Assembly: GCF_000341895.1 (NCBI RefSeq)
Contig: NC_020409.1
Location: 3,242,411 to 3,274,410 of the forward strand
Source of the DNA: Pseudodesulfovibrio piezophilus C1TLV30
Lineage (GTDB): Bacteria > Desulfobacterota > Desulfovibrionia > Desulfovibrionales > Desulfovibrionaceae
Length of the DNA stretch: 32,000 nt
Reading direction: 5' to 3'
Shown: positions 3,547-26,477 of the stretch, in pieces
Position numbering within the stretch: the first letter of the stretch is position 1
Layout: each line of letters starts with the position of its first letter
Program-made: the position numbers and the translations under genes
Notes under the pieces: model-generated
What the model was told of the DNA's origin: nothing
The model's input: the letters and a program-made list of their open reading frames with translations, nothing else
Databases searched by the model: none

Positions 3547-6500
3547 ATGAAGCTCGACCGTCGTAGCTTTATGAAGCTCGCAGGTTCTGGAGCGGCGTGT
3601 CTCACCTTAGGGCAGCTCGGAGTGAATCTTTCACCGGTCAAGGCTTATGCAGCGGATATCAAGATATCCGGAGCAAAAGAAGTCGTGACTGTTTGTCCGT
3701 TCTGTTCGGTGAGTTGTCACGTCATTGGTCACGTGAAGGGGGGGGAACTCGTCAATACCGAGGGTGATCCCGATTTTCCGGTTAACGAAGGTGCCTTGTG
3801 TGCAAAGGGTGCGGCCATGTTTAGCATGACCACCAGTCACCACAGGCTTCAGAAACCGCTTTACCGCGCTCCCTATAGCGACAAGTGGGAAGAGAAGAGC
3901 TGGGAGTGGATGCTGGACCGTATGGCTCGGCGCATCAAGGACACTCGTGACAAGGATATTATCCTCAAAAACGAGAAAGGCGACACTGTCAACAGGCTCG
4001 AATCCATGTTCCTGCTGGGAACTTCCCACGCCGGGAACGAGGAATGTGCCATCATTCACCAAGCAATGCGAGGCCTGGGCGTCGTCCACATGGACCACCA
4101 GGCCAGGATCTGACACAGCGCAACTGTTGCGGCTCTGGGAGAGTCGTTCGGACGCGGTGCGATGACCAACCACTGGATTGACATCAAGAATGCCGATTCA
4201 GTCCTTATAATGGGCAGTAATGCTGCCGAACATCATCCGATCTCATTCAAATGGGTCTTGCGGGCCAAGGACAAGGGCGCCACTGTTATGCATGTGGACC
4301 CGAAGTTCTCTCGTACATCCGCACGGTCGGATTTCCATGTTCCCTTGCGGTCCGGTACGGATATCGCTTTCCTCGGGGGCATGATCAAGTACATTCTCGA
4401 AAATGAGAAATTCTTCCACGAATATGTTGTCGAATACACCAATGCCGCGCTCATCGTGGGCAAGGACTATGGTTTCAAGGACGGCCTTTTCACCGGTTAC
4501 GATGCAAAGACCCGTTCCTACGACAAAAGCAAGTGGGGCTTTGAGATGGACTCGAAGGGGGTACCCAAGAGAGACAAGAGTCTCAAACACCCCCGGTGCG
4601 TTTATCAACTGATGAAGGCTCACTATTCGCGCTACAATATCGAGGCGGTTTCAGCCACGACTGGTGTCTCTGCGGAAAACCTGATGAAGGTCTATGAGAA
4701 CTTCGCTGCAACCGGTGTCAAGGACAAGGCCGGGACCATCATGTACGCTCTCGGCTGGACTCAGCATACTGTGGGTGTGCAGAATATTCGCTCCGCCGCC
4801 ATTATTCAGCTTTTGCTGGGCAATATCGGTGTTGCCGGTGGCGGTATCAACGCCCTGCGTGGTGAGCCGAATGTTCAGGGGTCCACAGACCATACCCTGC
4901 TGTACCACATTATCCCCGGCTATATGGCCATGCCGCATAACGGGTGGCAGACCTACGACGAATACGTCAAGGCCAACACCCCGGTGAGCAATGATCCCAT
5001 GTCGGCGAACTGGTGGCAGCACAAGCCCAAGTACTTTGCCAGCCTGCTGAAGGCTTGGTACGGTGAAAAAGCCACCAGAGAAAACGGCTTCTGCTATGAA
5101 CTGCTTCCCAAGATTGAAAAGGGCGAGGATTATTCCTACATGTTCCTGTTCGATCGCATGTATAACAAGCAGATTCGTGGCGGATTCATTATCGGGCTGA
5201 ACCCGATGAACAGTGTCCCGAATACGAATAAGGTCAGAAAGGCCTTGGATAATCTGGACTGGCTGATTACCTCTGAACTGCATCATTCCGAAACTACGGA
5301 CAACTGGCAGCGCCCCGGCGTTGATCCCAAGAAGATCAAGACCGAGGTGTTCCTGTTACCTTCGGCTCACCGTCTGGAGAAGGAAGGGTCCACCACCAAC
5401 TCCGGTCGCTGGTTGCTTTGGCATAATCAGGCTACCAAGCCTGCATACGAGGCCAAGCCGTTTGGTGATCTGTTCTGTGGCGTCATGAACCATGTGAAGG
5501 CTTTGTATGCCAAGGAAGGGGGAACTCTTCCCGAAGCCGTGACCTGGCTTGATTACCCTGAAAAGTATGATCCCGAAGACCTGTGCGCCCGTATCAACGG
5601 TCGTTTCCTCGAAGACACGGAATTCAAGGGCAAGAAATACAAGAAAGGGCAGCAACTGCCGTCCTTTACTGCGCTCAAGGATGACGGCTCCACCATGAGT
5701 CTGAACTGGCTTTATGCCGGGAGTTATACCGAAGAGGGTGGCAACAAGGCCAAACGTCGTGAGACGACACAGACCGAAATGCAGAAGACTATCGGTTTGT
5801 ATCCGAAATGGTCATGGTGCTGGCCGGTCAATCGTCGTATTCTGTACAACCGTGCCTCTGTCGACTTTGACGGCAAGCCATACAATCCGGCCAAGGCCGT
5901 CATTGAATGGAAGGACGGCAAGTGGGTTGGTGATGTGCCTGATGGAGGCTGGCCACCGATTGCCACCGGTAAAGGTCGCTATCCGTTCATCATGTCCAAG
6001 AATGGTTTCGGGCAGATATTCGGTCCGGGACGTCAGGACGGACCGTTCTCCGAACATTACGAACCGGTGGAAACACCAGTTGATTCGAATATGTTCTCCA
6101 AGCAGCTCAGCAGTCCTGTTTACAAGTCCGTGAACAGTGATATGGACAAGCTTGCACAACCCAATAGTCCCGACTATCCCATTGTTCTGACGACTTATAG
6201 TCTGACAGAGCACTGGTGCGGCGGTGGTGAAACAAGAAACGTTCCCAACCTGCTGGAAACCGAGCCTCAACTCTATGTCGAGATGAGCCCGGAACTGGCT
6301 CAGGAAAAAGGTATCGTCAATGGTGATGGTGTGATCGTCGAGAGTATCCGCGGACGGGTCGAGGCCATAGCCATGGTCACGGTTCGCATGCGTCCTCTCA
6401 AGGTCCATGGTCGAATTGTTCACGAAATCGGCATGCCGTTCTGCTTCGGCTGGACAACGCCAGGGACGGGTGATGCCACCAACAGGCTGACGCCTTCGGT

Positions 6501-6588
6501 TGGTGATCCCAATACAACCATCCCTGAGTACAAGGCCTGCTGTGTGAATATTCGTAAGGCAGACAAGCTCACTGAGCTGGCAACCTAA
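3547..6588 (+). CDS. fdhA: Periplasmic formate dehydrogenase catalytic subunit, selenocysteine-containing (TGA at 4111-4113 read as Sec)
   Basis: Track ORFs 3547..4113 and 4162..6588 share one frame. Translating through the TGA gives VVHMDHQARI-U-HSATVAALGESFGRGAMTNHWIDIKNAD, the canonical FDH active-site context. A twin-arginine signal is present (MKLDRRSFMKLAGSGAA...AYA), as is the N-terminal Fe-S Cys motif (VCPFCSVSCH...C). AGGAGG RBS upstream. Confidence 0.93.
4111..4140 (+). promoter_or_regulatory. UGA(Sec) recoding site with candidate SECIS hairpin immediately downstream
   Basis: After the UGA comes CACAGCGCAACUGUUGCGGCUCUGGG. AGCGCAA (4117-4123) can pair with UUGCG(G)CU (4127-4134), with one bulged G. 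The fold was done by eye only. Confidence 0.5.
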
Positions 6589-7343: not shown

Positions 7344-7416
7344 CACGATAAACGTCTCTCCCTCGGGGATCGGGCCGGAATGGTCGCGGTCCCCGCCGGA
7401 GGGATTGGAGCGCTTC

Positions 7417-8331
7417 ATGAAATCTGTATCTGCTCTCAAGGCTGTCGAATCGACATTGATGACCATCAACGGAAGAACTCCTGCATACGTGGAGTTGACT
7501 GAGCGTTTTGGTCCTGTGTTCATTTCCTCAGCCCGGCTGCGCGATGAATTGGTGGCGGAAGGCGTGGCCTCTCTAGAAATTGATCCTGTCCGGTTGGCGG
7601 CCGGGGTTCCGGTTCTCGTTGGTTCCGATTTTTCACAGTGGACTGATTTGTTGAGTTCCTCTGTCAAACGCCTTCTCCCCGAACTTCTTGAAGTGCTCGA
7701 ACTCGAAGACGATGCATGTGAAGCTCTTCGCGTCTTTTTCGATGATTCCGATACTCTCTTGGCGCTCGTTCAGGCTCGGACTGAAGGCGATTGGAAACAC
7801 TTTGAGAACACCTCCGTACAGTTGGAAACCGTATCAGCAACAACCTTGCTGTATATTTCAGAGATTGTTTTCTCTCCTGTCCTTTGTGCTATAGCCGAGA
7901 CTCTGGGCGAGCGCCTTGAATCCCATTCCTGGGAACATGGTCATTGCCCTGTTTGCGGCTCTTCTCCTTCCATCTCCCAGCTTTCGCCCAAGGAAATCAC
8001 CGATCTTGATCAATTGGTCGGTGGCGGAGGGAAAAAATATCTTCACTGTTCTCTTTGCGGTCATGACTGGCGCTACAAAAGGAATGCCTGTCCATCCTGC
8101 GGAAATGATGACAGTGAATCCCGTGAAGTTTTTTACGCGGATGACACCCGGTTTGAACGGGTGGAGGCGTGCCATAAATGCGGCACCTACTGTCTGAATG
8201 TTGATCTGCGTGAATGTGAACCTCTGCCGCATCTCGACGCCATTCAGATGGGGCTTATTCATCTCGATATCTATGCGCAAAAAAAGAAATTGACCCCTTT
8301 GGTTTCCACTCTGTGGAATTCCCTGGATTAG
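7417..8331 (+). CDS. fdhE: Formate dehydrogenase accessory protein FdhE
   Basis: Paired CxxC motifs are typical of FdhE (CPVCGSSP, CSLCGHDW, CPSCGN, CHKCGTYC). ATG 7417 (TGGAG 6 nt upstream) is preferred over the TTG at 7405 used in the track. Confidence 0.85.
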   Translation: MKSVSALKAVESTLMTINGRTPAYVELTERFGPVFISSARLRDELVAEGVASLEIDPVRLAAGVPVLVGSDFSQWTDLLSSSVKRLLPELLEVLELEDDACEALRVFFDDSDTLLALVQARTEGDWKHFENTSVQLETVSATTLLYISEIVFSPVLCAIAETLGERLESHSWEHGHCPVCGSSPSISQLSPKEITDLDQLVGGGGKKYLHCSLCGHDWRYKRNACPSCGNDDSESREVFYADDTRFERVEACHKCGTYCLNVDLRECEPLPHLDAIQMGLIHLDIYAQKKKLTPLVSTLWNSLD

Positions 8332-8334
8332 CTT

Positions 8335-9156
8335 ATGGAGACGGGAATGCAGACAACCCGGTTGCGGGATGCCGCGCGAAAAGCCGCGTCTCATGACGAG
8401 AAAACCCAGCCGCAGCCAGACGGAGTGCGGCTGGCCTGTCCCATGACCCTGCAATGTTACAAGGACGGCCAACTCTCATTCAGAGAGGATATGGTCGCTG
8501 TCGAGTCGGATATTCGGCTTCAAATCAATGGGCTGGATCATGCCGTGCTTACCAGAACTCCTGGTGATGATTTGACGCTTATTGCCGGATACCTCTTCTC
8601 CTGTTCCATGATCCGGGACGCCGAAGATCTTCTGGATGTCTCCTTTGGATATAGTGGCGCATCCAAGGCACGGGTCACTCTCAAGGCTCCGAGTGTGATC
8701 AGGCGGCTTTTCCCGTCACCTCGCCCTGTAGTCTTGGACCCGGAAAGGCTTTTTGATTTCAAGAAGACCTTTGAAAGGCGGCAGAATCTCTACAGGAATA
8801 CAGGGTCAACCCATGCGGCTGCCCTGTTCAGCATGGATGGAGAGTTGATCGCTTTCGGGGAGGATGTTGGGCGACACAATGCCTTTGACAAGGCTATTGG
8901 GCGCGCATTACTTGAGGGCTCGCTGGAGAGAGTTGGTATCGCGATGCTCTCCTCCCGGCTGGCCTTGGAGCTGACAATCAAAGCTTCCAATGCCAATATT
9001 CCTATTTTATGTGGGTTTTCTGCGGCGACCAGTTCGGGCATCAATTTTGCCGAGCGCAACAATATTACTTTGGTAGGGCGAATTCGCGAGGACTCTTTCA
9101 ATGTCTACGCCAATAGCTGGCGGCTCAAGGGCAGCAAAGGGCATCAGTCCGAATAA
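8335..9156 (+). CDS. fdhD: Formate dehydrogenase accessory sulfurtransferase FdhD
   Basis: Contains the FdhD signature GRHNAFDKAIG and the motif CGFSAATSSG. ATG 8347 is an alternative start with a better GGAG spacing. Confidence 0.85.
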   Translation: METGMQTTRLRDAARKAASHDEKTQPQPDGVRLACPMTLQCYKDGQLSFREDMVAVESDIRLQINGLDHAVLTRTPGDDLTLIAGYLFSCSMIRDAEDLLDVSFGYSGASKARVTLKAPSVIRRLFPSPRPVVLDPERLFDFKKTFERRQNLYRNTGSTHAAALFSMDGELIAFGEDVGRHNAFDKAIGRALLEGSLERVGIAMLSSRLALELTIKASNANIPILCGFSAATSSGINFAERNNITLVGRIREDSFNVYANSWRLKGSKGHQSE

Positions 9157-10551: not shown

Positions 10552-11160
10552 TCATGTAGACTGTCGGTATCGGCTTTCGTTGGTATTGCAAGGCCAGAAC
10601 TGAGGTATAGGGTTCCTCGCCGCAGAGATATGCCCGTAATTTTTTTTCGTCTCACCTTCCATATACTTCATGAGGGGCTGGTGAACTGCTGTGACTTTGT
10701 TTAGGGCACTGATGATTTTGACATCCCAAACTTCGTGGTAGCGTTCCAGGTCATCCGGACGGAGAGCTTTTCGACAGTTGGGACAATTGCATTCCAGAGG
10801 GATGATCTCTTCCAGGTTGAAAAGACCATAATCGTCACATATCTCTTCACCTTCGTGGATATCCCTGAGAGCTATTTCAAATCCGTACCCGGTACTGATG
10901 GTATTGCAGTCACATTTATGATTGACGAATTTGGCATGATCCCAACTCAGGATGCGTATTCCTTTTTCATCAATATAGGAAAATTTGTCCGCGATGGTTT
11001 TATGGTCATCATCCAGCTCATTGAAATCTTTTTCCGAGAGCTCTATTTCGAGTTGATCTTTGACATAAACTATGGTGCCACGGGGGATGTCGGCAGTGGC
11101 AAAAACGCCGTAACCGATGGATGCATTGACAAATCGTACTTCTGTTTTCGGATGAATCAT
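10552..11160 (-). CDS. SET-domain protein lysine methyltransferase with post-SET Cys cluster
   Basis: GYGVFATADIPRGTIVY, FVNHKCDCN (the NHSC-type motif), EEICDDYG (the ELxxDY-type motif) and post-SET CNCPNC are present. The start is set at ATG 11160 (MIHPKTEV) because the 11280 start would overlap the upstream gene by 80 nt. Confidence 0.8.
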   Translation of the reverse strand: MIHPKTEVRFVNASIGYGVFATADIPRGTIVYVKDQLEIELSEKDFNELDDDHKTIADKFSYIDEKGIRILSWDHAKFVNHKCDCNTISTGYGFEIALRDIHEGEEICDDYGLFNLEEIIPLECNCPNCRKALRPDDLERYHEVWDVKIISALNKVTAVHQPLMKYMEGETKKNYGHISAARNPIPQFWPCNTNESRYRQST

Positions 11161-11200
11161 GGTGAAAATCTCTTCGTTTGGGTGGATGTATGAGAAGAGG

Positions 11201-11473
11201 CTACCAGTCGTCGTCGCTCTGGTAATCCATTTCGTCTTCAAGTTTGTAGTTGCGAATCTTGATGCGGTATTCATCTTCACTTTCCGTGATAATGCCCTGT
11301 GCGGTCACCCAGCGGTCTATGTGATCTATCAATTGTTCGCCATTCTCATTGTTTTCGACAAGAAATTCCTCTTCACCATCCACCAGAATGACGATTCCGG
11401 AGACGGCATCGTCGTCCCAGTCCAAAGGCAGGACTTGTCCATACAAAGAATCTTCATATATCTCCAAGGCCAT
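11201..11473 (-). CDS. Small acidic protein of unknown function (90 aa), paralog of 12467..12739
   Basis: A strong RBS (AAAGGAGGTAAATT-ATG) lies 17 nt after the GNAT stop. It shares the pattern G.V.P..WDD...V.G......GE.E..V.N...........GII with the other 90-aa ORF. Confidence 0.7.
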   Translation of the reverse strand: MALEIYEDSLYGQVLPLDWDDDAVSGIVILVDGEEEFLVENNENGEQLIDHIDRWVTAQGIITESEDEYRIKIRNYKLEDEMDYQSDDDW

Positions 11474-13002: not shown

Positions 13003-13017
13003 AGACTTCTCAGTTCT
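13003..13017. promoter_or_regulatory. Candidate UAS site 3: AGACTT-CTC-AGTTCT
   Basis: Third copy of the TTCTCAGTTCT core. Its centre is 31 bp from site 2, and it overlaps the stop codon of the activator gene. Confidence 0.45.
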
Positions 13018-14407
13018 TGTTTTTGAAATCAGCCCGATAAAGAGAATGCCGATTCATGAGTTTATTTAACTGCCGAGTTGTCACTCCTGCCCTCTGTGCG
13101 GCGTCTTTCATGATGCCATTACATTGTTCCAGCAGGCTTGTGAGATATTGTTTTTCGAATTTATCCACAGTAATCTGTCTCGCCATTTTGAGCGGAAGGT
13201 CTGTTTTGACGGGTGAGGTGACCACTTCGCCTTGGGTATCAAGAAGGTCGGGAGGGAAGCTTTCGGGATGGAGGATTTCACCTGTTTCGAGAATACAGGC
13301 CCGTTCGATGACATTTTCCAACTCTCGGACATTGCCCGGCCAGTCATACTCCAAGAGAGTGTCGAGTACATGGGGATGCATCCCCTTCAATTCCGTGTTG
13401 AGTTGCCCATTGAATTGCCTGATAAAATATTCTGAAAGTCTTGGGATATCTTCTCGGCGTTCCCGCAAAGACGGGATACGGATTGGGAAAACATTCAGTC
13501 TGTAAAAGAGGTCACGGCGAAATTTGCCATCTTCACAAAGTTTTCCCATGTCTTCGTTGGTCGCAGCGATAATGCGGACATCCACGGGAATATCATGCTC
13601 GCCACCGACACGCTGAATCCGCCTTTCCTGGATGACATTGAGCAGTTTAACTTGCACAGATTGGCTGACAGTTCCTATCTCATCAAGAAAAATGGTGCCG
13701 CCTTGAGCCAGTTCAAATTTTCCGAGTTTGCGGCGAACGGCCCCGGTAAAGGCACCTTTTTCGTGGCCGAAAAGCTCACTTTCAACGAGTGTGTCCGGGA
13801 TTGCCCCGCAGTGAATGCTGATGAATGGTTTCTCTTTACGATTGCTATGGGCGTGAAGGAGTTTGGCTATAAGGCTTTTCCCTGTGCCTGTTTCTCCTGT
13901 GAGAAGAACAGTGGTCCGGGTGCCTGCCACCTGTCTGATTTTGACAAAGACAGCGCGCATGGCTTTGCTGTTGGTATCCACATAATCGAGGAAATCTTCA
14001 TTCCAAAATTGATCTCGCAAATAATCCAGTTCTGATTGGAGGACATCGGATTCCCGGACTTTTTTAACAACCAGTCCCAGTTCCTCTTTCTCTATGGGGT
14101 GCGTCAGGTAATCAAACGCCCCGGCGTTGACTGCGTCCACGGCAAATCCGGTTTGCTCTTCATCTGCCATGACTACAATGGCTGCCGACGGGTAGTGCGT
14201 CCAGAAGCTTTCAAGCGCCTTGTTGATGGATTTATTCGACTCAAGCAGGGACTCCACATCGACGAATACTGTATCGACTTCCCTATCCGGGGGCTGCTCT
14301 CCGGATTCAGTTGCTGTTTCCGTGTGGATTTTTGTATCCTGAAAGAGCAGGCTGCCAATTTCTTCGGAACGATTTCCATCGCGCGTGATGACAAGCATTT
14401 TTCTCAT
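13010..14407 (-). CDS. Sigma-54-dependent transcriptional activator (bEBP) with atypical receiver-like N domain, AAA+ domain and Fis-type HTH
   Basis: [15 protein letters not shown] (Walker A), [15 protein letters not shown] (GAFTGA loop), and a C-terminal HTH ([18 protein letters not shown]). In the N domain the acidic pair is replaced (VITRDG) and the conserved Lys is replaced by His (YLTHP). AGGAGG RBS. Confidence 0.9.
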
Positions 14408-14549: not shown

Positions 14550-16172
14550 CTACAGAAACAGGTAGACCGCAGCCAGACCTGTGAGAGACATGGTGATAGT
14601 ATAAGGCAATGCCAATGTAACCATTCTGCCGTACGAAAGGCGGATAACCGGAGCCAGTGCACTGGTCAGCAGAAAGAGGAATGCTGCCTGACCATTGGGA
14701 GTTGCCACAGAGGGAATATTCGTCCCTGTGTTAATGGCAACGGCCAGTTTGTCGAAATGCTCCATTGTCTCTTTGACCTGTGTTGCGACATTGGCAGGCA
14801 GAGTTGCGAGCACGTCGGCACGGGCAACGTGGGCGTTGGTCAATTTATCCATCAGCTCCTGTCCGGTCATGCCGATGCCAGGGATGGCGTTCAGCACATG
14901 GACAAAGTGCAGTTTGGTTTCGGATATGTAGACTGTGGCTACGAAGACGTTATCCGAAATTGAGGAGAGCAGGCCGTTGGCAGCATAATAGGCGACAAGC
15001 TGAGTTTGTCCTTTGAGTCTGAGAACGTGGTCGATGATCGGTGTGAAGAGTTCCTGGGAGTGGATGACCGCCACGATGGAGAAAAAGACCACCAGGAGCG
15101 CTGTAAAAGGCAACGCTTCTTCAAAGGCATGTCCAAGCTGGTGCTCTTCCACAATACCGGTAAACGAAGTCAGCAGGACAATGACGGAAAGTCCGATGAG
15201 ACCAACTGCTGCGAGGTGAAAGGCGAGTGCGGTCACAAGCCAGATTCCGGTAAGCGCTTGAATGACCAGTTTCAATCGTCCGCGATCACCTTGCTTCTCT
15301 TCCATTTCAACAGCGGTTTCCAGAAGAAACGACCTGATGTTGCCAGGTAATTGGGCTCCGTAGCCAAAAATGTGGAAATGCTCAACCGCCAGGCAGGTGA
15401 GCAGGCCGACACCGAGTACAGGCATGGTGACCGGCATGGCATGCAGGAAGAAGGGGATGAAATGCCACCCCATTTCTTCTCCAACCAGCAGGTTTTGTGG
15501 CTCTCCAACCAGTGTACACACGCCACCCAGTGCCGTTCCGACAGCGCCATGCATCATCAGATTGCGAAGAAAACCACGGAATTGGTACAGTTCCTCTTTA
15601 CTCGTATCAACAACTAAACCATCCGAGCTCAGATCGTGGTCATCGGTGTGACTTTTTCCGGAGGCAAAGCGGTGATATACATTGTAGAAGCCATAAGCCA
15701 CAGCGATGATAACGGCTGTGACGGTCAGGGCATCAAGGAAAGCCGAGAGCACCGCACCCGCAAGACAGAACATCAGTGCAATGGCTTTTTTCGATTTTGT
15801 CCGAACCAGGATGCGTGTAAAGGTGAATTGCAGAAAGTCCTTCATGAAGTAGATACCTGCCACCATGAAGATAAGCAGGAGAATAACCTCAAAGTTCTTC
15901 TGGGCTTCTTCATAGACTGCATTCGCGGAGGTCATCCCCATGATGACAGCTTCGATGGCCAAGAGTCCGCCCGCTGGCAAGGGATAGCACTTGAGCGCCA
16001 TTGCCAGGGTAAAGATGAATTCTGCGATCAACGCCCACCCGGCCACGAATGGTCCGGCCGTTACGATCAGGATGGGGTTGAGGATGAGAAAGCTTACGAT
16101 GACAAGCTTGTACCATCCCGGAGCGTGCCCGAGAAAAGTTTGGGCAAAGGTTTTAGCAAGTGGTGTCTTCAT
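14550..16172 (-). CDS. nhaB: Na+/H+ antiporter NhaB
   Basis: The N-terminus [23 protein letters not shown] matches the conserved NhaB start (E. coli FLGQSPDWYKL, from memory). It is a ~540-aa polytopic protein with an AAGGAG RBS. Confidence 0.85.
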
Positions 16173-16347: not shown

Positions 16348-18147
16348 TTAATAAAACATCATCAGCGCTGTGATCATGACTACCATGTAAATGACCGTCA
16401 TACCAGCGCCACTGCGGACGTAGTCAATGGTCCGGTACCCTCCTGGGCGCATGATCAATGCGTTGACCTGGTGAGTGGGCAGTACAAACGTATTCGAAGC
16501 TGCCACAGCGACCGTCAGGGCCGCTACACGAGGATCAACACCTGCGTTGAGAGCCATGTTCATTGACAGTGGAACCAGCAGGACGGTGGCACCGACATTG
16601 GAAGCCACCAAAGTGAAGAAGGATGTCAGGATACCGATGACTGTGAGCAGGACGACTGCGGATGGTGTGCCAAGTGCAGCCATGATGGTGTCGGCTATAT
16701 ACTTTGCCGCGCCGGTATTCTCAAAGGCCATACCCAGAGGAATGAGTCCTCCAAGCAGGAAAACAGTCATCCAGTCAACTGACTGGTAAGCTTCATCAAT
16801 GGTCAGGACTTTTGTCAGAACCATACCCAAGGCTCCTGTGAGGAGTGCGATGGAGAGCTGAACATGGAAGCCCAGAATCATGACAAGGGAAACAGCCAGC
16901 CACATCAAGGCTACTTTTGCCTTATCCGTTCGTAACAGTTCCCCTTTGACGCCTTCGGTAAAGACGAGGTCGGGCAAGCCTTTGAGCATGTGAAAGACTT
17001 CCCAACGTCCATGCAGGAGCAGGGCGTCACCCGACTCAAGTATGATATCACTCAGCCCACTGATAAAAATCTTGTCTCCACGGAAAATAGCCAATGGCGA
17101 AACCTGGAAACGTTCCCTGATGCGCATATCGGCAAATGTGGTTCCCATGAATTCGGACCGAGGGGTGACAAGACCTTCCATGATACCCGCATTGTTCGGA
17201 GACAATTCCTCGGCAAAGGTGGAGAGTTCAACTTGCAATGTCCAGTTCAGGTCATCAGCCATGTGTTCGACAAATTCCTGCGGACCAACGACAACGAGGT
17301 GGTCGCCGGGGCGAACCTCTTCCTGTGGTGTCGGGGCAAAGATGTGCGTCTTGCCTCCGTCTCGGGCAATGGCGACCAATGTGCAGAAATAGATGGGGCG
17401 AAGATCCAGGGATTTCAATGACTGATCTGATTCCCAGTCCTCCGGCACATGCAGCTCGAAAAGAGAGCCGACATTATTGTAGGTGTTAGAAAGAACGGTC
17501 GACATGGGGCCGGAGTTCTCTTCATCAGCCCTGGTAGGCAAAATGAATCTGCCGAAAAGGATGAAGTAGACAAGGGCCGCTGCTATCAGCAACAGCCCAA
17601 CGGGGGTGACGCTGAATAGCCCGAATGATTCATATTTGGTGCCACCTACAACCATCAGGTCATTGAGAAGAATCAAAGGGCTGGAACCGACAAGGGTCAA
17701 ACAGCCTCCGATGATGGCGCAGAAACCCATGGGCATGAGCAGGCGACCCACGGGGACTCCTGTCTGGTTGCCGATCCGTTTTGCAGCGGGCAAAAAGAGT
17801 GCTGCTGCGCCAATATTCTGCATGAAGCCGGATATGAAAGCCACGGTTCCTGATATGAGAGTCATAATGCGCGATTCGCTTTTTCCGGCGAAGCGCAAAA
17901 TTATTCGGGCCATGGAATTCATGACGCCAGTCTTGTCCAGACCGGCGCCAATGATGATAACTGCTATGATGGAAACAACGGCATTACTGCTCAGTCCGCT
18001 GATGGCTTGTTGAGGGGTTACCAGGCCAAGAAGAGGAAGAAGTACCATCATGATGATACCGACTACGTCGACTCGAACCCATTCGAAGATGAAAAGAAGT
18101 ACAGCAAAAGCGAGTACGGCCATAACCGTAATGATCTCAGGGGTCAT
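16348..18147 (-). CDS. SLC13/DASS-family anion permease with two central TrkA-C (RCK_C) domains
   Basis: Two hydrophobic halves flank two soluble repeats of ~70 aa (…RPGDHLVVVGPQEFVEHM and …ESGDALLLHGRWEVFHML), typical of TrkA-C inserts in YbiR/CitT-like permeases. Confidence 0.8.
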   Translation of the reverse strand: MTPEIITVMAVLAFAVLLFIFEWVRVDVVGIIMMVLLPLLGLVTPQQAISGLSSNAVVSIIAVIIIGAGLDKTGVMNSMARIILRFAGKSESRIMTLISGTVAFISGFMQNIGAAALFLPAAKRIGNQTGVPVGRLLMPMGFCAIIGGCLTLVGSSPLILLNDLMVVGGTKYESFGLFSVTPVGLLLIAAALVYFILFGRFILPTRADEENSGPMSTVLSNTYNNVGSLFELHVPEDWESDQSLKSLDLRPIYFCTLVAIARDGGKTHIFAPTPQEEVRPGDHLVVVGPQEFVEHMADDLNWTLQVELSTFAEELSPNNAGIMEGLVTPRSEFMGTTFADMRIRERFQVSPLAIFRGDKIFISGLSDIILESGDALLLHGRWEVFHMLKGLPDLVFTEGVKGELLRTDKAKVALMWLAVSLVMILGFHVQLSIALLTGALGMVLTKVLTIDEAYQSVDWMTVFLLGGLIPLGMAFENTGAAKYIADTIMAALGTPSAVVLLTVIGILTSFFTLVASNVGATVLLVPLSMNMALNAGVDPRVAALTVAVAASNTFVLPTHQVNALIMRPGGYRTIDYVRSGAGMTVIYMVVMITALMMFY

Positions 18148-18193
18148 GTGAAGTCCTTGGGAATCGTGAAATTCAATCGTTGCGGGTTACGTG

Positions 18194-18790
18194 CTATTTT
18201 GCCCGCAATGTTGCCCGGGTGTATACGGGGATAGTCGTCTTGTTTTTGCATATGACAACGGAATCATCCATTACGTATCTGAATTGAGGGTCAGTCTTGT
18301 GCATTTGGCTGACGACGGAATCCTCGTCTCCCTGGCGGACTTCATGCTCAAAGGCGAGGCCTGCATTGGATGCCATTGTCGAAAAATTCGCGATGTTGCG
18401 TTCCGCCTGGGCGCGGAATCCGGCAAAGTCGCGACCGGTTTCATCGAGGTTGAGGGCGACCAGTGAAGTACGGGTTTTCTTGGCCATGGTGATAGCATAG
18501 TCTGCGATTCCTTGTGAAAAGGAGTTTCCTTTGCAGACAATGAGTATCTTGCATTGTTCTTGTTCACACTGACAGGGGTCTTGCATGGGGGGGATGTCGG
18601 TAGCAGCCGCTTCACGGGTGCGTGAAAATCTCTTGAAAAAAGCCTTCATCGAAGATCCTCCGGATGTTTCCATAAGGTGGTGTTCACGACAGACTACCCA
18701 TGCGCCAACGTGACAGGTGTTGCAGTTTGTGTCGGCCATGGTTTTATAATGCCTGTCCACTAAACTTTTCATACTCTTGAAGAGAGCCAT
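18194..18790 (-). CDS. Hypothetical protein with a Cys/His-rich N-terminus and a USP-like (adenine nucleotide alpha-hydrolase-like) C-terminal domain
   Basis: Strong RBS (AAGGAGTGAAAC-ATG). KILIVCKGNSFSQGIADYAITMAKK...LVALNL resembles a universal-stress-protein fold. It lies 46 nt upstream of the SLC13 gene and is probably co-transcribed with it. Confidence 0.5.
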   Translation of the reverse strand: MALFKSMKSLVDRHYKTMADTNCNTCHVGAWVVCREHHLMETSGGSSMKAFFKRFSRTREAAATDIPPMQDPCQCEQEQCKILIVCKGNSFSQGIADYAITMAKKTRTSLVALNLDETGRDFAGFRAQAERNIANFSTMASNAGLAFEHEVRQGDEDSVVSQMHKTDPQFRYVMDDSVVICKNKTTIPVYTRATLRAK

Positions 18791-19242
18791 GTTTCACTCC
18801 TTGTCTAACGTTTCGAGGGTACGGATCTGCCTCTCAATCGCTTGGATAAGATCAAAACACATGCCAAAATTATTTTTCTGTATAACTAGCTGATATTACT
18901 CATTAAGAGTTTTTTTGCCACTTTTCCTGGAATTTAATGCGATGCAACTTGCAACGATTCTATTTAGAAAAAAAGTTACATTGCTTGGTAAGAGGGCGTT
19001 TATGGGAAAAATGTATGATTCATAATGCAACGTTTTTTGGTCCAAAACCAAAAGGGTTCATCCTGACTCTGAGTCCGAGCTGAAAAAAAGTTTATAGGGC
19101 TTATATTGGTAACCAGAATAACAGGCAGTAAAAATTGCATTATCAGGTGGTTGTGTGCGTTTTTTCACAAATGTTACCCCTTCTGAGGAACTCTTTTGCC
19201 AATGGTTGGGCCAAAGTGAACCTGTTGTTGCGAATTGCAATC

Positions 19243-19271
19243 TTAACAAGCCTTTTACTGCATGATATATA
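19243..19271 (+). promoter_or_regulatory. Possible sigma-70 promoter TTAACA-N17-TATATA upstream of the REC-Lon gene
   Basis: Hexamer match and 17-nt spacing, counted by hand, ~90 nt upstream of ATG 19360. Confidence 0.3.
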
Positions 19272-19359
19272 ATGATTATAGACATGTGCGATTTTTTACG
19301 GCATGCCTGGACTCTGGTCCCTCATCTTTGAATGTGACGACAACGGGAGGATTACGCCC

Positions 19360-21435
19360 ATGAGTTGGTTTGGAATAGGGAAAAAAACAGTGCCCGAAAC
19401 GGTGACTCCTGAATCGGTTGCAACACCGACACCTCCCCCCTCTTTCCCGGTTTCGTCACACCATAGGGAACTCCGTGACAGAATCGAATCAGCGGGATTG
19501 CCAGACGAGATTCTCGACGCTGCCCGATCCGAATTTGAACGTGCTGACAGCATTGATCCCTCTTCGCCGGAATATGCCATCGGTTTGAATTATCTTGATT
19601 TTATTCTTTCCCTCCCCTGGAAAGAACGGACCAAGGATGATCTCGATATTCATCGGGCTGATGAAGTCCTGAATGCACGGCATTTTGGGTTACGGCAAGT
19701 CAAGGATCGGATTTTGGAATTTCTCGCGGTAAAAAACCTTCGAGGCCGCTATTCCCCACGTATTCTGCTGGTTGATGACGAAGCCATCGCACGGGAAAAT
19801 CTGTCAATCGTCTTTGAAATGGACGGGTTTGATGTTGTTGCCGTTGGCAACGGTCTTGAGGCAGTGGCTGCCATGGAAGAGGAGCCTGCCGATGTCGTGG
19901 TATCTGATTTGAAAATGGACGGCATGGATGGGATGGAACTCTTGCAGGTCCTCAGGCAACGGTGGCCTGATACCAAAGTTGTCATGTTGACAGGGTATGC
20001 AACAGTCAAGTCGGCTGTCGAAGCCATGCAACAAGGGGCGGATCAGTACCTTGGCAAACCTGTCAATCTGACAAAACTTCGAAAATATGTGGCCGATCTG
20101 TATGAACAGAGTCTTCGTGTCGAACACTTGCGCGGTCCTGTGCTGTGTTTCTCCGGGCCTCCCGGAATGGGCAAGACCTCCATTGGGAAGGGGATAGCCG
20201 AAGCTCTGGGGAGAAAGTTCATTCGACTTTCTCTTGCTGGGTTGCATGATGAAGCTGAATTGCGCGGTCATCGGCGGACCTATGTGGGGGCCATGCCCGG
20301 TCGTATCTTGCAGGGAATTCAGAAAGCCGGGTCCATGAACCCCGTTATCATGCTGGATGAGGTGGATAAGGCGGTTCAGAATTTTCAGGGCGATGCCACG
20401 TCTGTCTTATTGGAGATGCTTGATCCCGAACAGAACAATGCCTTTGTGGATCATTATCTTGGTCTTCCCTTTGATCTTTCGGGAGCCTTGTTTCTTTGCA
20501 CGGCAAATGCCGTTGAGAGGCTTCCTGCCCCGCTTCTGGATCGGCTTGAGGTCATCCATTTCCCAAGTTACACTCGGCAGGAAAAACTCCATATAGCCAC
20601 ACAGCATTTGGTACCCGAGCAACTGCGGATGCATGGTCTGGATGAGCGCTTGGTATCCTTGACCCCGGAAGCTGTTGCCCAAATCATACGGGAATACACA
20701 CGCGAGGCCGGACTGCGTGGCTTACGGATGCAGGTGGCGTCGCTGTGCCGAAAACTGGCCAAGGAAGTTCTGGCGGATGGGGACGGGCCAAGAGTTGTGG
20801 GGCCGGAAAGAGTGCTTTTTCTTTTGGGACCACCTCCCTTTGCAACGACGGAAGCACAGGGGGCTCCGAAGGTCGGCTTGGCGACAAGTCTGGTCTGGAC
20901 TGAAAATGGTGGTGAGATCATTTTTGTGGAAGCCGCACGAATGCGTGGCAACAAGCACCTTCTGCTTACGGGATCTTTGGGAGAAGTCCTGCGGGAATCC
21001 GCGCATACCGCCTTGAGCTATATCCGCAGCCATGCGGACGAGTTTAGCATAGCGCAGGATTTCTTTGAGAGCAGCGACATTCATGTCCATATTCCCGCCG
21101 GTGCCATTTCCAAGGAAGGCCCATCGGCCGGTGTTTCCATTGCTCTGGCGTTGTTGTCTTTGCTGACAGGGCGACCTGTGCGCCAGGATGTGGCCCTGAC
21201 AGGCGAGTTGTCACTTCTTGGCGACGTTTTGCCGGTCGGTGGAGTTCGGGAAAAGCTGATGGCCGCTCAACAGGCGGGAATCGCAATGGTCATTTTGCCC
21301 AAGGGGTGTGAACGACGTTTGGAGACTATTGAGGAAGAAGTGCTGCATGAGCTTGACATTCGCCTTGTCTCAACGATGGACGAAGCTGCGGCGTTAGCTC
21401 TGTGCGATCCTCCTAGGTCAAATGATATTTCTTAA
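19360..21435 (+). CDS. Lon-family ATP-dependent protease lacking the N-terminal LON domain and carrying an inserted CheY-like receiver (REC) domain
   Basis: Lon helical segment (LPWKERT...HFGLRQVKDRILEFLAV). REC (RILLVDDE...VVVSDLKMDGMDG...VVMLTGY...YLGKP) at about nt 19759-20103. AAA+ (GPPGMGKT, VIMLDEVDK). Lon_C with catalytic Ser (KEGPSAGVS) and Lys (GGVREKLMAA). GGGAGG lies 9 nt upstream of ATG 19360; the track start at 19303 has no RBS. Confidence 0.9.
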   Translation: MSWFGIGKKTVPETVTPESVATPTPPPSFPVSSHHRELRDRIESAGLPDEILDAARSEFERADSIDPSSPEYAIGLNYLDFILSLPWKERTKDDLDIHRADEVLNARHFGLRQVKDRILEFLAVKNLRGRYSPRILLVDDEAIARENLSIVFEMDGFDVVAVGNGLEAVAAMEEEPADVVVSDLKMDGMDGMELLQVLRQRWPDTKVVMLTGYATVKSAVEAMQQGADQYLGKPVNLTKLRKYVADLYEQSLRVEHLRGPVLCFSGPPGMGKTSIGKGIAEALGRKFIRLSLAGLHDEAELRGHRRTYVGAMPGRILQGIQKAGSMNPVIMLDEVDKAVQNFQGDATSVLLEMLDPEQNNAFVDHYLGLPFDLSGALFLCTANAVERLPAPLLDRLEVIHFPSYTRQEKLHIATQHLVPEQLRMHGLDERLVSLTPEAVAQIIREYTREAGLRGLRMQVASLCRKLAKEVLADGDGPRVVGPERVLFLLGPPPFATTEAQGAPKVGLATSLVWTENGGEIIFVEAARMRGNKHLLLTGSLGEVLRESAHTALSYIRSHADEFSIAQDFFESSDIHVHIPAGAISKEGPSAGVSIALALLSLLTGRPVRQDVALTGELSLLGDVLPVGGVREKLMAAQQAGIAMVILPKGCERRLETIEEEVLHELDIRLVSTMDEAAALALCDPPRSNDIS

Positions 21436-22744
21436 TTTTTCGCCACAGGGAAACCCTGTCTATGCCAAGGATTCGTGCTGCTTGTGTCTTGTTCCCACTT
21501 GAGGCGGTCAGGACTTTTCTGATGTGTGCCTTTTCCACGTCTTCCAGTGAAGGGAGAGGGGCTTCGGCTGGCATGTTCCCTACTTCAACGGGAAGCAGGT
21601 CCGGGGTGAAGGATGGTCCCTGTCCCAGAGCCAGTGCTCGCTGGACGATATTTTCCAGCTCACGCGCATTGCCGGGAAACGGGTATCGCATCAGGATGTC
21701 CAGTGTATCTTGCGAGATGGAGTTGATGGTCTGTTCCGCGTGGCGGTGCTTTTCCAAAAAATGTCCCATAAGAATCGGAATGTCCTCGCGGTGCTCCCGT
21801 AAGGGAGGAGCCTGGACAGTAACCACATTGAGTCGATAGTAGAGATCCTGCCTGAATTCTCCCTGCTTGACCAACTCGCGCAAGTCACAGTTTGTCGCCG
21901 CAACGACTCGGATGTCCACGGGTATTTCCCGCGTGCCGCCGACTCGCAGGAAGGTTCGCTCTTGAAGTACCCGCAGGAGCTTGACCTGCATGTTCAGCGG
22001 CAGTTCTCCTATTTCATCAAAGAAGACCGTGCCGCCGTCAGCGACTTCCAGGATACCTTTTTGCCCCCGGTTAGCCCCTGTGAACGCTTCCTTTTCATGG
22101 CCGAATAATTCCTTGTCCATCAGTTCCGCGGTGAAGGTCCCGCAGTTGATAGCCATGAAACGTTCCTCTGAGCGTTGGCTGAGTTGGTGGATGCCTTGGG
22201 CGACCAGTTCCTTGCCTGTCCCGGTTTCTCCCTGGATCAGTACGTTGCAGTTCATCTGGGCCAACTGCTTTACAGTATTCTTGAGTTGAGTGAAGACATC
22301 ACTTTGTCCGACAAGGGGGAAATCACTCTTGCCCTGTGCGATGATCTTTCGAAGTCTGAGGACCTCTACGGACAGGGCATGTTGTTCCAATGCCCGCTCG
22401 ACTTGAAGACGAAGTTCATCGAGTTTCAGTGGCTTGGCGATATACGAATGGGCACCCTTCTGCATTGCCTTGACAGCATTGGCCACAGTCGCATGTCCCG
22501 TGACAACGATGACCATGGTCGAAGGGTGTTGGGCACGGGTGTGCTCCAACATTTGAATACCATCCATGCCGGGAAGCATCAGGTCGGTGATGACGAGGTC
22601 GTATTCCCGTTTTTCCAATTGTCGCAGGCCCTCTTCGGCAGAGACCAGTGCGGTGACTGTATGTCCCGCATTGGTCAGGACATGAGTCAGGTTTTCGCGT
22701 GCGATCTGTTCGTCTTCGACGACCAGAATGGATGCAGCTGTCAT
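21413..22744 (-). CDS. Sigma-54-dependent response regulator (NtrC/AtoC family: REC-AAA+-Fis HTH)
   Basis: Canonical REC (ILVVEDE, LVITDLMLPGMDG, VVTGH, YIAKP), GETGTGKELVA, GHEKEAFTGA, and C-terminal QAARILGIDRVSLWRKI. Its ATG overlaps the kinase stop (ATGA). Confidence 0.92.
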   Translation of the reverse strand: MTAASILVVEDEQIARENLTHVLTNAGHTVTALVSAEEGLRQLEKREYDLVITDLMLPGMDGIQMLEHTRAQHPSTMVIVVTGHATVANAVKAMQKGAHSYIAKPLKLDELRLQVERALEQHALSVEVLRLRKIIAQGKSDFPLVGQSDVFTQLKNTVKQLAQMNCNVLIQGETGTGKELVAQGIHQLSQRSEERFMAINCGTFTAELMDKELFGHEKEAFTGANRGQKGILEVADGGTVFFDEIGELPLNMQVKLLRVLQERTFLRVGGTREIPVDIRVVAATNCDLRELVKQGEFRQDLYYRLNVVTVQAPPLREHREDIPILMGHFLEKHRHAEQTINSISQDTLDILMRYPFPGNARELENIVQRALALGQGPSFTPDLLPVEVGNMPAEAPLPSLEDVEKAHIRKVLTASSGNKTQAARILGIDRVSLWRKIKKYHLT

Positions 22745-24153
22745 GCTGAAACCTCCTGTGAAAGCGGGAGTCTGATATAAAAGGTGGTTCCTTCGCCCGG
22801 AGTGCTCTCGGCGCGGATGGTTCCCCTGTGTTTTTCAATGATGCCATAGACGATGTAGAGGCCGAGTCCGGTTCCCTGTCCTACTTCCTTGGTCGAGAAG
22901 AATGGGTCGAAGATGCGTTGCAGTGTGTCTGCCGACATGCCTTCACCCGTGTCGGATATGGAAATGACCTCGAATCCGTCTTCCTGCCCCATCCGTATAT
23001 CAATGGAGCCTTCCTCGAGGCCAATGGCCTGGATGGCGTTGATGATCAGGTTGATGAACGCCTCCTGAAGCCGTTGTCGGTCCAGTGGCAGCGTGAGGTC
23101 TTCGGGCACACTTATGTTGAGCGCTATGCGTGGTCCGAGTTGGCTGGAGACAAGACGGGCTGCGCTCTCCAGGATCGATTTGAGTTGACAGGGGGCGGGG
23201 GAAAAGTCCTTGTGACGGGAGAATTCGAGTAACCCTTTGACTATGTCTCTGGCCCGGAGTGTTTCCTGATTGATATTTTGCATCATCTTGTCGGCGAATT
23301 CACTCTGTCCCGCAGTTTCTTCAGCCAGAATCTGTGCCGAAGTCGAAATATTATTGAGCGGGTTGTTCAACTGGTGTGCTATCCCCGAAGCAAGGGTTCC
23401 GATGGAAGAGAGTTTTTGGGCCTGAACCAGTTGCAGCTGCCGTTTCTTGAGTTCTTCAACCATGGAATTCAGCGCGACGAAGACCTGTTGGATTTCATCA
23501 TCGGTGTTTTTCACTTCAAGGGGAACAAAAGTCCCCTGAGCTATCTTGCGTGTCGCTTCCTGTACTTCTCGCAAGGGGCGCAGGATGCTTTTTATGATGA
23601 AGACGACAATCGCGCAGACCACCAGGGCAACTATCGCCATGGAAGTGATCAGGGTCATACGAAGCTTTTCATTGATGACAAGAATGCTTTCGCGTTCAAA
23701 TTCAGCAATGGCACGAGAGTGTTCCACAAGGCTCTGCCCGGTTTCCCGGAGGTTCTGGGCCTTGGGCGAGTCTCCTGTCTTATTGGGTGACGCCGCATTG
23801 AACTGGGCAAGCAGGTCGCCATATCGCTGCAATCCTTGCTTGAGGGCGGCTCCATGCTCTCCGCTTCTAGGCTTGGCAAGTTCGACGGACAGGACTTCAA
23901 GGGCTGCTGTTGCTTGTTCCAGGTACTTTGGGCCGATGGAAAAAAGAGCCGTGTTCTGGTAGAGGAAAAAGTTTTTTTCTTCACGGCGAATTTCCAGAAT
24001 CAGGTTGCGGAGGTCGTCCGCGCGTTCGACCAGTAGAACTTCCTGCTGCAGTTGATTGATATTGGAAAGGGACAGCAAGGCTATTCCCCCAAAAGCGAGA
24101 GAAAAAATTGCAATTCCAAATATGATGGTTTGTCTGAGATTCGGTTTGACCAT
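22741..24153 (-). CDS. Sensor histidine kinase (TM - ~150-aa periplasmic helical domain - TM - HAMP - HisKA - HATPase_c)
   Basis: Two TM helices, a HAMP-like segment (ILRPLREVQEATRKIAQGTF...DEIQQVFVALNSM), an H-box (ASGIAHQLNNPLNNI) and G-boxes (DTGEGM, GTGLGLYIV). Confidence 0.9.
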   Translation of the reverse strand: MVKPNLRQTIIFGIAIFSLAFGGIALLSLSNINQLQQEVLLVERADDLRNLILEIRREEKNFFLYQNTALFSIGPKYLEQATAALEVLSVELAKPRSGEHGAALKQGLQRYGDLLAQFNAASPNKTGDSPKAQNLRETGQSLVEHSRAIAEFERESILVINEKLRMTLITSMAIVALVVCAIVVFIIKSILRPLREVQEATRKIAQGTFVPLEVKNTDDEIQQVFVALNSMVEELKKRQLQLVQAQKLSSIGTLASGIAHQLNNPLNNISTSAQILAEETAGQSEFADKMMQNINQETLRARDIVKGLLEFSRHKDFSPAPCQLKSILESAARLVSSQLGPRIALNISVPEDLTLPLDRQRLQEAFINLIINAIQAIGLEEGSIDIRMGQEDGFEVISISDTGEGMSADTLQRIFDPFFSTKEVGQGTGLGLYIVYGIIEKHRGTIRAESTPGEGTTFYIRLPLSQEVSA

Positions 24154-25225: not shown

Positions 25226-25283
25226 TAAATATAGACTTTACAACATTTTTTTTGTGTGCATAATGCCTCAAGGAAGGAATGCT

Positions 25284-26477
25284 ATGAGAGAGTCTTTGCA
25301 GGTTGAGAAATTTGAAAAAATGAGTGACGGGCAGCTTCTGGCCTTGCGGAACTGTCTTGATACAGTCATTTCCGCAAGGGATGGGCTGGTGGGTCAACCC
25401 GATTTCACAATGGCATCCGGCTCGCAAGCCTGTCGTTTTTTTACCGTGCCGGACGGTGTGCGACGGCTGGATAAACATCAGGTTGAACAGCTGACCAGAG
25501 CTTTTGAAGAATGGGTTGGTGAATCTCGTGATGCCCGTACCCTCAGGTCAAGAGAACGTGTTTTTATAACATTTCTTGTTCTTCGGTACACAGGAGCGCG
25601 ATTGGGCGAGGTCCAGTCTTTGGACGAGACTCGAGATATAGATTTTCAGCACTGTTTTGTCCGCCTTCCTCTGGGGACTGGTGTGCATGGGAAAAGTGGG
25701 GTGCGGGAAGTCCCCATTCCAGCGGAAGTCATGGCTCGGATCAGTGAATGGTGTGAGCGAAATGCGAGTGCCAAGTCCAACCGGAACTCCCGTGAGACCC
25801 TGTTCCATTTCGATCAGGGATTCTTGCGCCGTAAATTTCACGAACAGGAAAAGCGGTCAGGGCTGCCCCGCGAATTATTGAATCCGAGCGGTTTGCGGAA
25901 TTCCCGCGCCATTGAATTGATGCAGGGCGGTATGCCAATGCGTGCAGTACAAGCTTTGCTCGGGTATTCCAAATCGGATTTTATTTCATCATTTGTCACT
26001 CTTGCTGACAATGACTTGAAATGTGTTGTTCAGCATTATTGCAAAAAGGAATTCGGAATGGAAACAAGTGCCAGAAATACATTCAAGGGACAGGTTGTTC
26101 GCGTTCTGGCCAATCCTGTAATGTGCGAGATCGTCCTGCGCACAGAATCGGGGTATGAGGTCGCGGCCACGGTGACTAACCAGAGCCGGGAGAAGCTTGG
26201 ACTTGAAGAAGGCCGACCTGCTTCTGCCTTGATCAAAGCGACATGGGTGATCCTTGAAAAAGGTGATACGAAGCCAGAGACCAGCGCCCGGAATGCTTTC
26301 CCCGGAACCATCACCAAGGTGACCAGTGATGGTATCACTGCGGAGGTGGACGGCAGTCTGGACGATGGCACCCCCGTGTGTGCTCTGGTCACCGCAGGCA
26401 GTTTCGAAAAACTCGGTATCGGTGAAGGTGATCGGTTCATTTTCATGTTCAAGGCTATGTCTGTCATTATCAGCTAA
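25284..26477 (+). CDS. tunR: TunR-family Mo/W-responsive regulator: degenerate tyrosine-recombinase-like DNA-binding domain fused to two Mop/TOBE domains
   Basis: Integrase-like box I (LVLRYTGARLGEV) and box II (LRNSRAIELMQGGMPMRAVQALLGYS). The C-terminus has two repeats of TSARN.F.G.(V/I) Mop motifs (TSARNTFKGQVV..., TSARNAFPGTIT...). AGGAAGG RBS before ATG 25284. It lies next to modBAC. Confidence 0.75.
   Translation: MRESLQVEKFEKMSDGQLLALRNCLDTVISARDGLVGQPDFTMASGSQACRFFTVPDGVRRLDKHQVEQLTRAFEEWVGESRDARTLRSRERVFITFLVLRYTGARLGEVQSLDETRDIDFQHCFVRLPLGTGVHGKSGVREVPIPAEVMARISEWCERNASAKSNRNSRETLFHFDQGFLRRKFHEQEKRSGLPRELLNPSGLRNSRAIELMQGGMPMRAVQALLGYSKSDFISSFVTLADNDLKCVVQHYCKKEFGMETSARNTFKGQVVRVLANPVMCEIVLRTESGYEVAATVTNQSREKLGLEEGRPASALIKATWVILEKGDTKPETSARNAFPGTITKVTSDGITAEVDGSLDDGTPVCALVTAGSFEKLGIGEGDRFIFMFKAMSVIIS

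Follow-up and report, generated by a model that had tools for sequence, protein, structure and literature searches.

Introduction

The closest described relative of the protein analysed here comes from Desulfovibrio (Nitratidesulfovibrio) vulgaris Hildenborough, in which DVU3303 was reported to be a response regulator with a Lon protease in it and placed in a 'three-component system' with the kinase DVU3304 and the sigma54 regulator DVU3305 (Rajeev et al. 2011, PMC3333781). The lon gene is the first of a lon-kinase-regulator operon in that organism, and DVU3303-3305 were later found to have pairwise cofitness above 0.9 under chlorate stress (Trotter et al. 2023, PMC10102598); these two papers and Kazakov 2015 (PMC4641369) are our sources for the system. 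Here we analyse a 32,000-nt stretch of Pseudodesulfovibrio piezophilus C1TLV30 (the window, whose numbering is used throughout) and, within it, the protein encoded by the open reading frame (ORF) 19360..21435 of the plus strand, which we refer to as REC-Lon. By alignment, this protein is a LonA-type protease into which a complete receiver domain (REC) has been inserted.

The two systems resemble one another in that each encodes a Lon-containing response regulator with a histidine kinase and a sigma54 regulator as its neighbours, opposite a divergent operon for an anion transporter and for proteins that are hypothetical or Usp-like, and in both lon lacks a sigma54 promoter. They differ in layout, since the D. 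vulgaris lon, kinase and regulator genes lie on one strand, whereas the kinase and regulator genes of the window are inverted and converge on lon. DVU3303 was matched by its description and through homologs from Nitratidesulfovibrio (the genus of DVU3303), which have the same REC-Lon architecture and the D. vulgaris gene order, and not by its own sequence.

The architecture itself is therefore not new: it was published in 2011, DVU3303 was tied to the kinase and the regulator by genetics in 2023, and database names reflect the architecture, one relative being called 'response regulator receiver modulated ATP dependent protease'. An earlier note on this DNA, made from the letters alone, had known of no characterised example; this holds only in a narrower sense, in that we found no biochemical or structural study of a REC-Lon in the literature covered, which omits most subscription journals. 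Three points that the earlier DVU3303 papers do not contain are new here, namely the precise site of insertion, the loss of the N-domain throughout the family and the paralogy of the two receivers; a conserved N-terminal peptide is new as well.

A receiver domain inserted into a LonA-type protease

The REC-Lon gene encodes 691 amino acids followed by a stop codon, and its product consists of a leader, a three-helix bundle, a REC, an AAA+ module and an S16 protease. In a Pfam scan, Response_reg matched residues 135-244 (E 3.7e-29, model positions 1-110 of 111), AAA matched 262-399, Lon_lid 424-474 and Lon_C 483-681 (E 1e-70), and no match to LON_substr_bdg (PF02190) was obtained in the 691-residue protein. 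Taken with the predicted secondary structure, these matches place the REC, a (beta-alpha)5 domain, at residues 134-256 (19759..20127, plus strand, as are all features of the gene); the AAA+ module, with its large subdomain and lid, at 259-474 (20134..20781); and the S16 protease at 483-681 (20806..21402), in which the codons of the Ser589-Lys632 dyad are 21124-21126 and 21253-21255. The predicted phospho-acceptor, D183 (codon 19906..19908), lies at the end of strand beta3 (residues 179-183). Among the NCBIfam models, TIGR00763 (endopeptidase La) scored 666 against a cut-off of 608, over two separate stretches, and NF008053 scored 534 against a cut-off of 891.

Searches of the PDB with phmmer define the insertion point. 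The helical bundle that precedes the receiver (residues 36-128; 19465..19743), homologous to the LonA helices preceding the AAA+ module, aligned with residues 252-344 of Thermus thermophilus Lon (70 bits) and also with residues 12-102 of a Bacillus subtilis Lon construct, and residues 259-686 aligned with T. thermophilus Lon 353-780. Because both flanks align to Lon and roughly 130 residues (129-258) occupy the place of the 8-residue linker of canonical LonA, the REC is, on these alignments, an internal insertion and not a terminal fusion. The earlier note had claimed just this, namely a complete REC directly before the Walker A strand of a protein with LonA-type AAA+ and protease modules and a retained pre-ATPase helical segment, and domain matches, PDB alignments, conservation and structure prediction concur on it. 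Its claim that the PUA-like LON N domain is absent was borne out as well, only 35 residues preceding the bundle. This leader (residues 1-35; 19360..19464) starts with MSWFGIGKK, is rich in Pro and Thr and is disordered, with a predicted local distance difference test score (pLDDT) below 50 at residues 1-30.

Compared with canonical LonA proteins (E. coli, B. subtilis, T. thermophilus, M. taiwanensis and human LONP1), to which it is about 50% identical over the AAA+ and protease modules, REC-Lon keeps the pre-ATPase bundle and all motor and catalytic residues but lacks the N-terminal region of about 250 residues that comprises the PUA-like domain and a long helix. In this respect it is closer to the engineered, truncated LonA chains (3m6a from B. 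subtilis, 4ypl from M. taiwanensis and 6on2 from Y. pestis), which begin at approximately the same bundle, although these are laboratory constructs without a receiver and REC-Lon is a natural protein. LonA truncated at the N-terminus retains ATPase and peptidase activity and loses efficient protein degradation. From this behaviour and from the loss of the N-domain, REC-Lon probably has a narrow substrate range, and the same comparison suggests that it may depend on an adaptor.

The start of the gene deserves comment, as the open frame extends from 19303 to 21435 with ATG 19360 inside it. A GGGAGG Shine-Dalgarno sequence lies 9 nt 5' of ATG 19360, the homologs start at the equivalent position with M-x-[W/F]-F, and the 691-residue product is 100% identical to the P. 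piezophilus database entry (P0001), which NCBI names only 'S16 family serine protease'. On these grounds ATG 19360 is the likely start codon, and ATG 19303 was rejected, having no Shine-Dalgarno sequence and lying upstream of the point at which the homologs and the database entry begin. The 569-bp intergenic region (18791..19359) contains no plus-strand ORF of at least 50 codons other than the in-frame extension from 19303, in agreement with the earlier note.

Structure prediction places the receiver directly before the nucleotide-binding strand

The three-dimensional model of REC-Lon was built as a monomer with AlphaFold2 from an alignment of 43 sequences and has a mean pLDDT of 82. Residues 1-30 are disordered, five helices span residues 33-127, and the REC adopts the canonical (beta-alpha)5 fold. 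Helix alpha5 of the receiver is longer than usual (237-256) and is followed, after only about four residues, by strand beta1 of the AAA+ module (261-265). Because the long helix enters beta1 after so few residues, the signalling face of the REC (alpha4-beta5-alpha5) is, in the model, almost rigidly tied to the strand that bears the Walker A loop.

A fold search with the model returned ordinary LonA only, the best matches being the N-terminally truncated chains (TM-score up to 0.9 when normalised on the target), and neither a PDB sequence search nor the fold search returned a solved chain uniting REC and Lon.

The architecture recurs across Desulfobacterota and Nitrospirota

To assess residue conservation we used an alignment of 43 homologs with 53-77% identity. 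The REC signature (D139, D140, D183, T211 and K233, the last with P234) is invariant, as are K272 and T273 of Walker A, D333 and E334 of Walker B, the pore-loop residue Y308, N383, R395 and R453 (sensor-1, arginine finger and sensor-2 residues thus being present) and the protease dyad S589/K632; all of the receiver, Walker and protease residues that the earlier note had named are among them. Both junctions of the REC have constant length, with zero indels. Likewise, the 120 best database relatives (55-77% identity, 650-710 residues) all share the same set of Pfam domains, PF00072 included.

The spread of the family was surveyed in one genome per GTDB species, which yielded at least 537 confirmed relatives as related genomic stretches, complete genomes included; of these, 79 loci were kept. 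They belong to Desulfovibrionales, Desulfobulbales, Desulfobacterales, Syntrophobacterales, Desulfomonile-type groups and Nitrospirota/Thermodesulfovibrionales, with one metagenome-assembled genome of Acidobacteriota. The family is compact, forming few clusters in a library clustered at 50% identity. The LonA N-domain is missing from all 72 full members examined. Some members appeared to have long N-termini (up to 805 residues in the ORF calls); these were dismissed as over-extended ORFs, in which the conserved M-x-F-F-[K/R] start lies inside, 25-35 residues before the helical bundle.

The earlier note had left room for a chimera of the assembly, and the DVU3303 gene was indeed first annotated by TIGR as 'ATP-dependent protease La, truncation', a name that would suit a mis-called gene or a decaying pseudogene. 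The recurrence of the architecture in at least 537 related stretches, drawn from independent genomes and including complete ones, excludes an assembly chimera; hundreds of independent genomes and metagenomes, complete chromosomes included, share the unbroken domain order together with junctions of constant length and catalytic residues that do not vary, so that an artefact of any of these kinds is extremely improbable.

A further conserved element is the N-terminal peptide M-x-[W/F]-F-x-[K/R], found in about 38 of the 43 homologs. It reads MSWFGIGKK here and MVFFRK, MIFFKK or MKWFRKK in other REC-Lons, and a variable disordered spacer of 15-35 residues joins it to the helical bundle. The peptide might serve as a pseudo-substrate, as a degron or for docking.

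The two receivers of the locus are paralogs

The closest solved receivers to the inserted REC include those of the NtrC family (FleR, NtrC1, DctD and NtrC), and RssB-type receivers are among the matches too. A still closer relative is encoded next to the gene, in the sigma54 enhancer-binding response regulator (EBP) of the same locus. Across loci, the Lon REC and the REC of its partner EBP are on average 49.9% identical (range 38-60), compared with about 37% for the Lon REC and other RECs of the same loci and with 57% and 56% within the two classes. Both receivers carry the alpha1 motif DDExIARxNL and the alpha4-beta5 stretch TG[YH]ATVxxAVxAMxxGA; in the specificity of kinases for their regulators, alpha1 is the helix that touches the kinase. 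In the window the likeness of the pair extends past alpha5 into the linker (EQ-SLRVEHLR in REC-Lon versus EQHALSVEVLR in the EBP), with 45% identity over 125 residues of REC plus linker. On this evidence the inserted REC and part of its helical linker are closely paralogous to the REC of the neighbouring EBP, and this paralogy points to one kinase feeding two outputs.

Of the 72 Lon RECs, 71 had another Lon REC as nearest neighbour, and of the 55 EBP RECs, 52 had another EBP REC, which suggests that the capture of the REC is old and does not reflect ongoing gene conversion. A neighbour-joining tree of the receivers left monophyly, and with it a single capture, unresolved (the columns are short and the outgroup class contains truncated orthologs), and the nearest-neighbour result is the only evidence of this type that we use.

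A histidine kinase and a sigma54 regulator accompany REC-Lon

The EBP is encoded at 21413..22744 on the minus strand, convergent with lon, and has REC, AAA+ and HTH_8 domains in Pfam. Co-transcribed with it is a membrane histidine kinase (22741..24153, minus strand) with two transmembrane segments and HAMP, HisKA and HATPase_c domains, which is the candidate kinase for the receivers of both REC-Lon and the EBP. On the other side of lon lies a divergent operon (16348..18790, minus strand) that encodes a 198-residue protein with no match in Pfam (18194..18790) and an anion transporter with CitMHS and TrkA-C domains (16348..18147); by analogy with D. vulgaris, this operon is a likely target of the regulon and the counterpart of DVU3302-3298.

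We then surveyed 73 REC-Lon loci within a radius of 7 kb. An orthologous EBP was found at most 7 kb from REC-Lon in 50 of them, accompanied by the kinase in nearly all, and the trio occurs in at least four arrangements: lon followed by a convergent regulator-kinase pair, as here (27 loci, five of which also have the transporter upstream); lon, kinase and regulator on one strand (nine loci); and, in further loci, the kinase-regulator pair upstream of lon in either orientation. The transporter is linked to REC-Lon in 11 of the 73 loci. Linkage that outlasts rearrangement of the genes argues for a functional trio of lon, kinase and EBP and not for the mere sharing of a transcript.

Several details of the neighbouring proteins may be recorded. 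In the EBP of the window, EAFTGA stands where the canonical loop is GAFTGA, and among 55 partner EBPs 20 have EAFTGA, four DAFTGA and five GAFSGA. The 198-residue protein has a conserved N-terminal segment with Cys and His (NCNTCHVG), and its C-terminal half, judged by eye, resembles Usp proteins; the protein starts with MALFKSMK and contains an internal MKAFFKRF, a faint and maybe coincidental likeness to the N-terminal peptide of REC-Lon. Beyond the transporter, the minus-strand genes 13010..14407 and 14550..16172 encode a second sigma54 activator, which has no receiver, and an NhaB Na+/H+ antiporter, and the order of the NhaB, CitMHS and 198-residue protein genes is kept in the three closest genomes.

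The intergenic region contains candidate regulator sites

The intergenic region was compared in a four-genome alignment of the window and three related Pseudodesulfovibrio/Maridesulfovibrio loci. A sigma54-like element, TGGCATGTGTTTTGA (18852..18866, minus strand), lies 62 nt upstream of the divergent operon with one mismatch (GC to GA at -12); this block, which is conserved in three of the four aligned loci, was found by eye and missed by a strict scan. Three sites resembling GTTGC-N5-GCAAC (18941-18955, 19017-19031 and 19227-19241) coincide with conserved blocks and pattern matches, and are candidate binding sites of the EBP.

For lon itself, a strict GG-N10-GC scan of 18780-19370 revealed no sigma54 promoter. 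A sigma70-like TTAACA-N17-TATATA lies 5' of lon, adjoining the site at 19227 (seen by eye only and not reported by a consensus scanner). This layout agrees with that published for D. vulgaris, where a DVU3305 chip peak falls in the intergenic region next to DVU3303 and the DVU3303-3305 operon is listed as having no sigma54 promoter.

Phosphorylation may gate the protease

Three types of known system help to place REC-Lon. Its REC is nearest to NtrC-family receivers and, as in NtrC1 and DctD, is joined to an AAA+ module through an extended alpha5 and a linker, which is homologous to that of the neighbouring EBP; unlike those activators, however, REC-Lon has an AAA+ module of the Lon (HCLR) clade, which drives a protease instead of remodelling sigma54, and its linker is shorter. 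The response regulators RssB and CpdR also couple two-component phosphorylation to regulated proteolysis, as predicted for REC-Lon, but they are separate ClpXP adaptors that act in trans, whereas here the receiver is within the protease polypeptide. CheB, finally, combines a receiver and a serine hydrolase on one polypeptide, and phosphorylation controls its catalytic output; it differs in being fused terminally through a flexible linker, in acting by occlusion of the active site and in having no ATPase, while the receiver of REC-Lon is an internal insertion beside the nucleotide-binding strand.

We favour, with a probability of roughly 0.55, the reading that REC-Lon is an accessory, LonA-derived ATP-dependent protease that serves a branched two-component system as its second output. 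The neighbouring kinase would phosphorylate both D183 of REC-Lon and the EBP; in REC-Lon, phosphorylation would shift the alpha4-beta5-alpha5 face, and the shifted face, by way of an alpha5 continuous with the nucleotide-binding strand, would switch ATPase competence or ring assembly. The logic of such a switch may have been inherited, with the REC and its linker, from an activator of the NtrC1/DctD type (REC-linker-AAA+). A single stimulus would thus have two consequences, the EBP turning on the divergent transporter operon and the degradation of a narrow set of substrates by REC-Lon being turned on (or off). Gating of the protease by phosphorylation, an idea of the earlier note, is plausible and is somewhat strengthened by the invariant REC residues and fixed junctions, the conserved neighbouring kinase and the paralogy of the receivers. 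For the direction of the effect we favour activation, as a guess that rests on the phenotype shared by the D. vulgaris DVU3303, DVU3304 and DVU3305 mutants.

Several points weigh against this proposal. We infer from sequence both the phosphotransfer to the REC and its effect on ATPase activity, assembly and proteolysis; the sign of regulation is, as stated, a guess and the substrates are putative. The placement of the REC relative to the ring and the pore lies outside the scope of a monomer model. True partner receivers share more identical positions than shuffled ones (58.4 versus 55.9, the observed value being reached in none of 2000 shuffles), yet this excess is small and could be confounded by shared ancestry or amino-acid composition. 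In addition, the cofitness observed in D. vulgaris could be polar, as lon is the first gene of the operon there. Because the kinase-regulator pair is inverted and convergent at the P. piezophilus locus, lon is transcribed separately from its own promoter here, an arrangement that would permit a cleaner test than that of D. vulgaris.

Other uses of the same parts have to be considered. The sign might be reversed, so that unphosphorylated REC-Lon is active and removes a component needed only under signal. The anatomy would be identical and the sequence does not fix the sign; furthermore, the receiver of NtrC1 and DctD regulates ring assembly negatively, although in those proteins it is phosphorylation that lifts the block. 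A shared phenotype of lon, kinase and regulator in D. vulgaris is nevertheless simpler if all three act in the same way, and we consider the reversed sign unlikely. Somewhat more doubtful still is that the REC replaces the N-domain as a substrate recruiter, heterodimerising through alpha4-beta5-alpha5 with the REC of the EBP or binding some other partner, with phosphorylation-dependent turnover of the EBP as a feedback. This would account for the absence of a substrate-binding N-domain throughout the full members examined and for the roughly 50% identity to the partner REC, the alpha4-beta5 stretch included, and it is through this same face that NtrC-family receivers such as NtrC1 and DctD dimerise. 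Degradation of the EBP, however, predicts a lon mutant opposite to the regulator mutant, contrary to the cofitness (subject to the polarity caveat), the heterodimer is putative, and the very short linker at the N-terminus of the ATPase is more in keeping with allostery than with a flexible capture arm.

Alternatively, the Lon REC might serve mainly as a phosphate sink or competitor, drawing off or buffering the phosphoryl groups of the shared kinase and thereby tuning the sigma54 regulator; the protease would then be constitutive or would control only how much of the sink is present. Pathways that branch to a sink receiver are an established two-component design, and two paralogous receivers with the same alpha1 face would compete for the kinase. 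A sink needs no AAA+ protease, yet the motor and catalytic residues are invariant and the junctions fixed, which argues for mechanical coupling; moreover, its mutant is expected to behave in the opposite way to the kinase and regulator mutants, while the three D. vulgaris genes behave alike (with the same caveat about polarity). We therefore regard a sink as quite improbable. Equally speculative is a scheme that combines gating and recruitment, in which the Lon REC, as a captured copy of the EBP REC, would be a 'paralog bait' in place of the N-domain: once phosphorylated, it would pair with the EBP REC or recognise the signalling complex, and the protease would degrade a component of its own pathway, with the ATPase ring licensed by the same event.

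Other features of the window and rejected candidates

The highest scorers in the library clustered at 50% identity, proteins of 889-1379 residues, were considered as larger signalling Lons and set aside as unrelated tandem AAA+ Lons without a REC. These proteins (P0121 and P0123-P0129) combine two or three tandem Lon-type AAA+/lid modules with a single protease domain behind them, a multi-ATPase Lon architecture that is unusual in itself. A role of REC-Lon in anti-phage defence was likewise rejected, PADLOC having given only weak, generic matches to the BrxL protease domain.

Elsewhere in the window, the plus-strand frames 3547..4113 (Molybdop_Fe4S4) and 4162..6588 (Molybdopterin, Molydop_binding) form one in-frame gene, 3547..6588, with a TGA at 4111-4113 in the context HQARI*HSATV; an FdhE-like gene (7405..8331) and then fdhD (8335..9156) follow downstream. 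From its sequence, this gene almost certainly encodes the alpha subunit of a selenocysteine-containing formate dehydrogenase. A 407-residue ORF on the plus strand (25254..26477) has the odd pairing of a phage-integrase-family domain with two TOBE domains of the molybdate-binding type, and a bacterial SET-domain protein of 242 residues is encoded at 10552..11280 on the minus strand.

Implications

The paralogy of the two receivers gives the favoured reading, a protease gated by the neighbouring kinase, a concrete prediction: one kinase, two receivers. If D183 does switch the motor, REC-Lon would represent natural control of an AAA+ protease by a two-component kinase within one polypeptide and without an adaptor; regulated proteolysis would join the direct outputs of response regulators, and the receiver would offer a built-in on/off handle for studies of ring assembly and substrate gating in Lon. 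Should the captured receiver prove to be a bait, the locus would encode a self-contained circuit from kinase to protease with built-in substrate specificity. Members of the family are common among sulfate reducers and in Nitrospirota, and the one of D. vulgaris is linked to stress responses and to chlorate tolerance.

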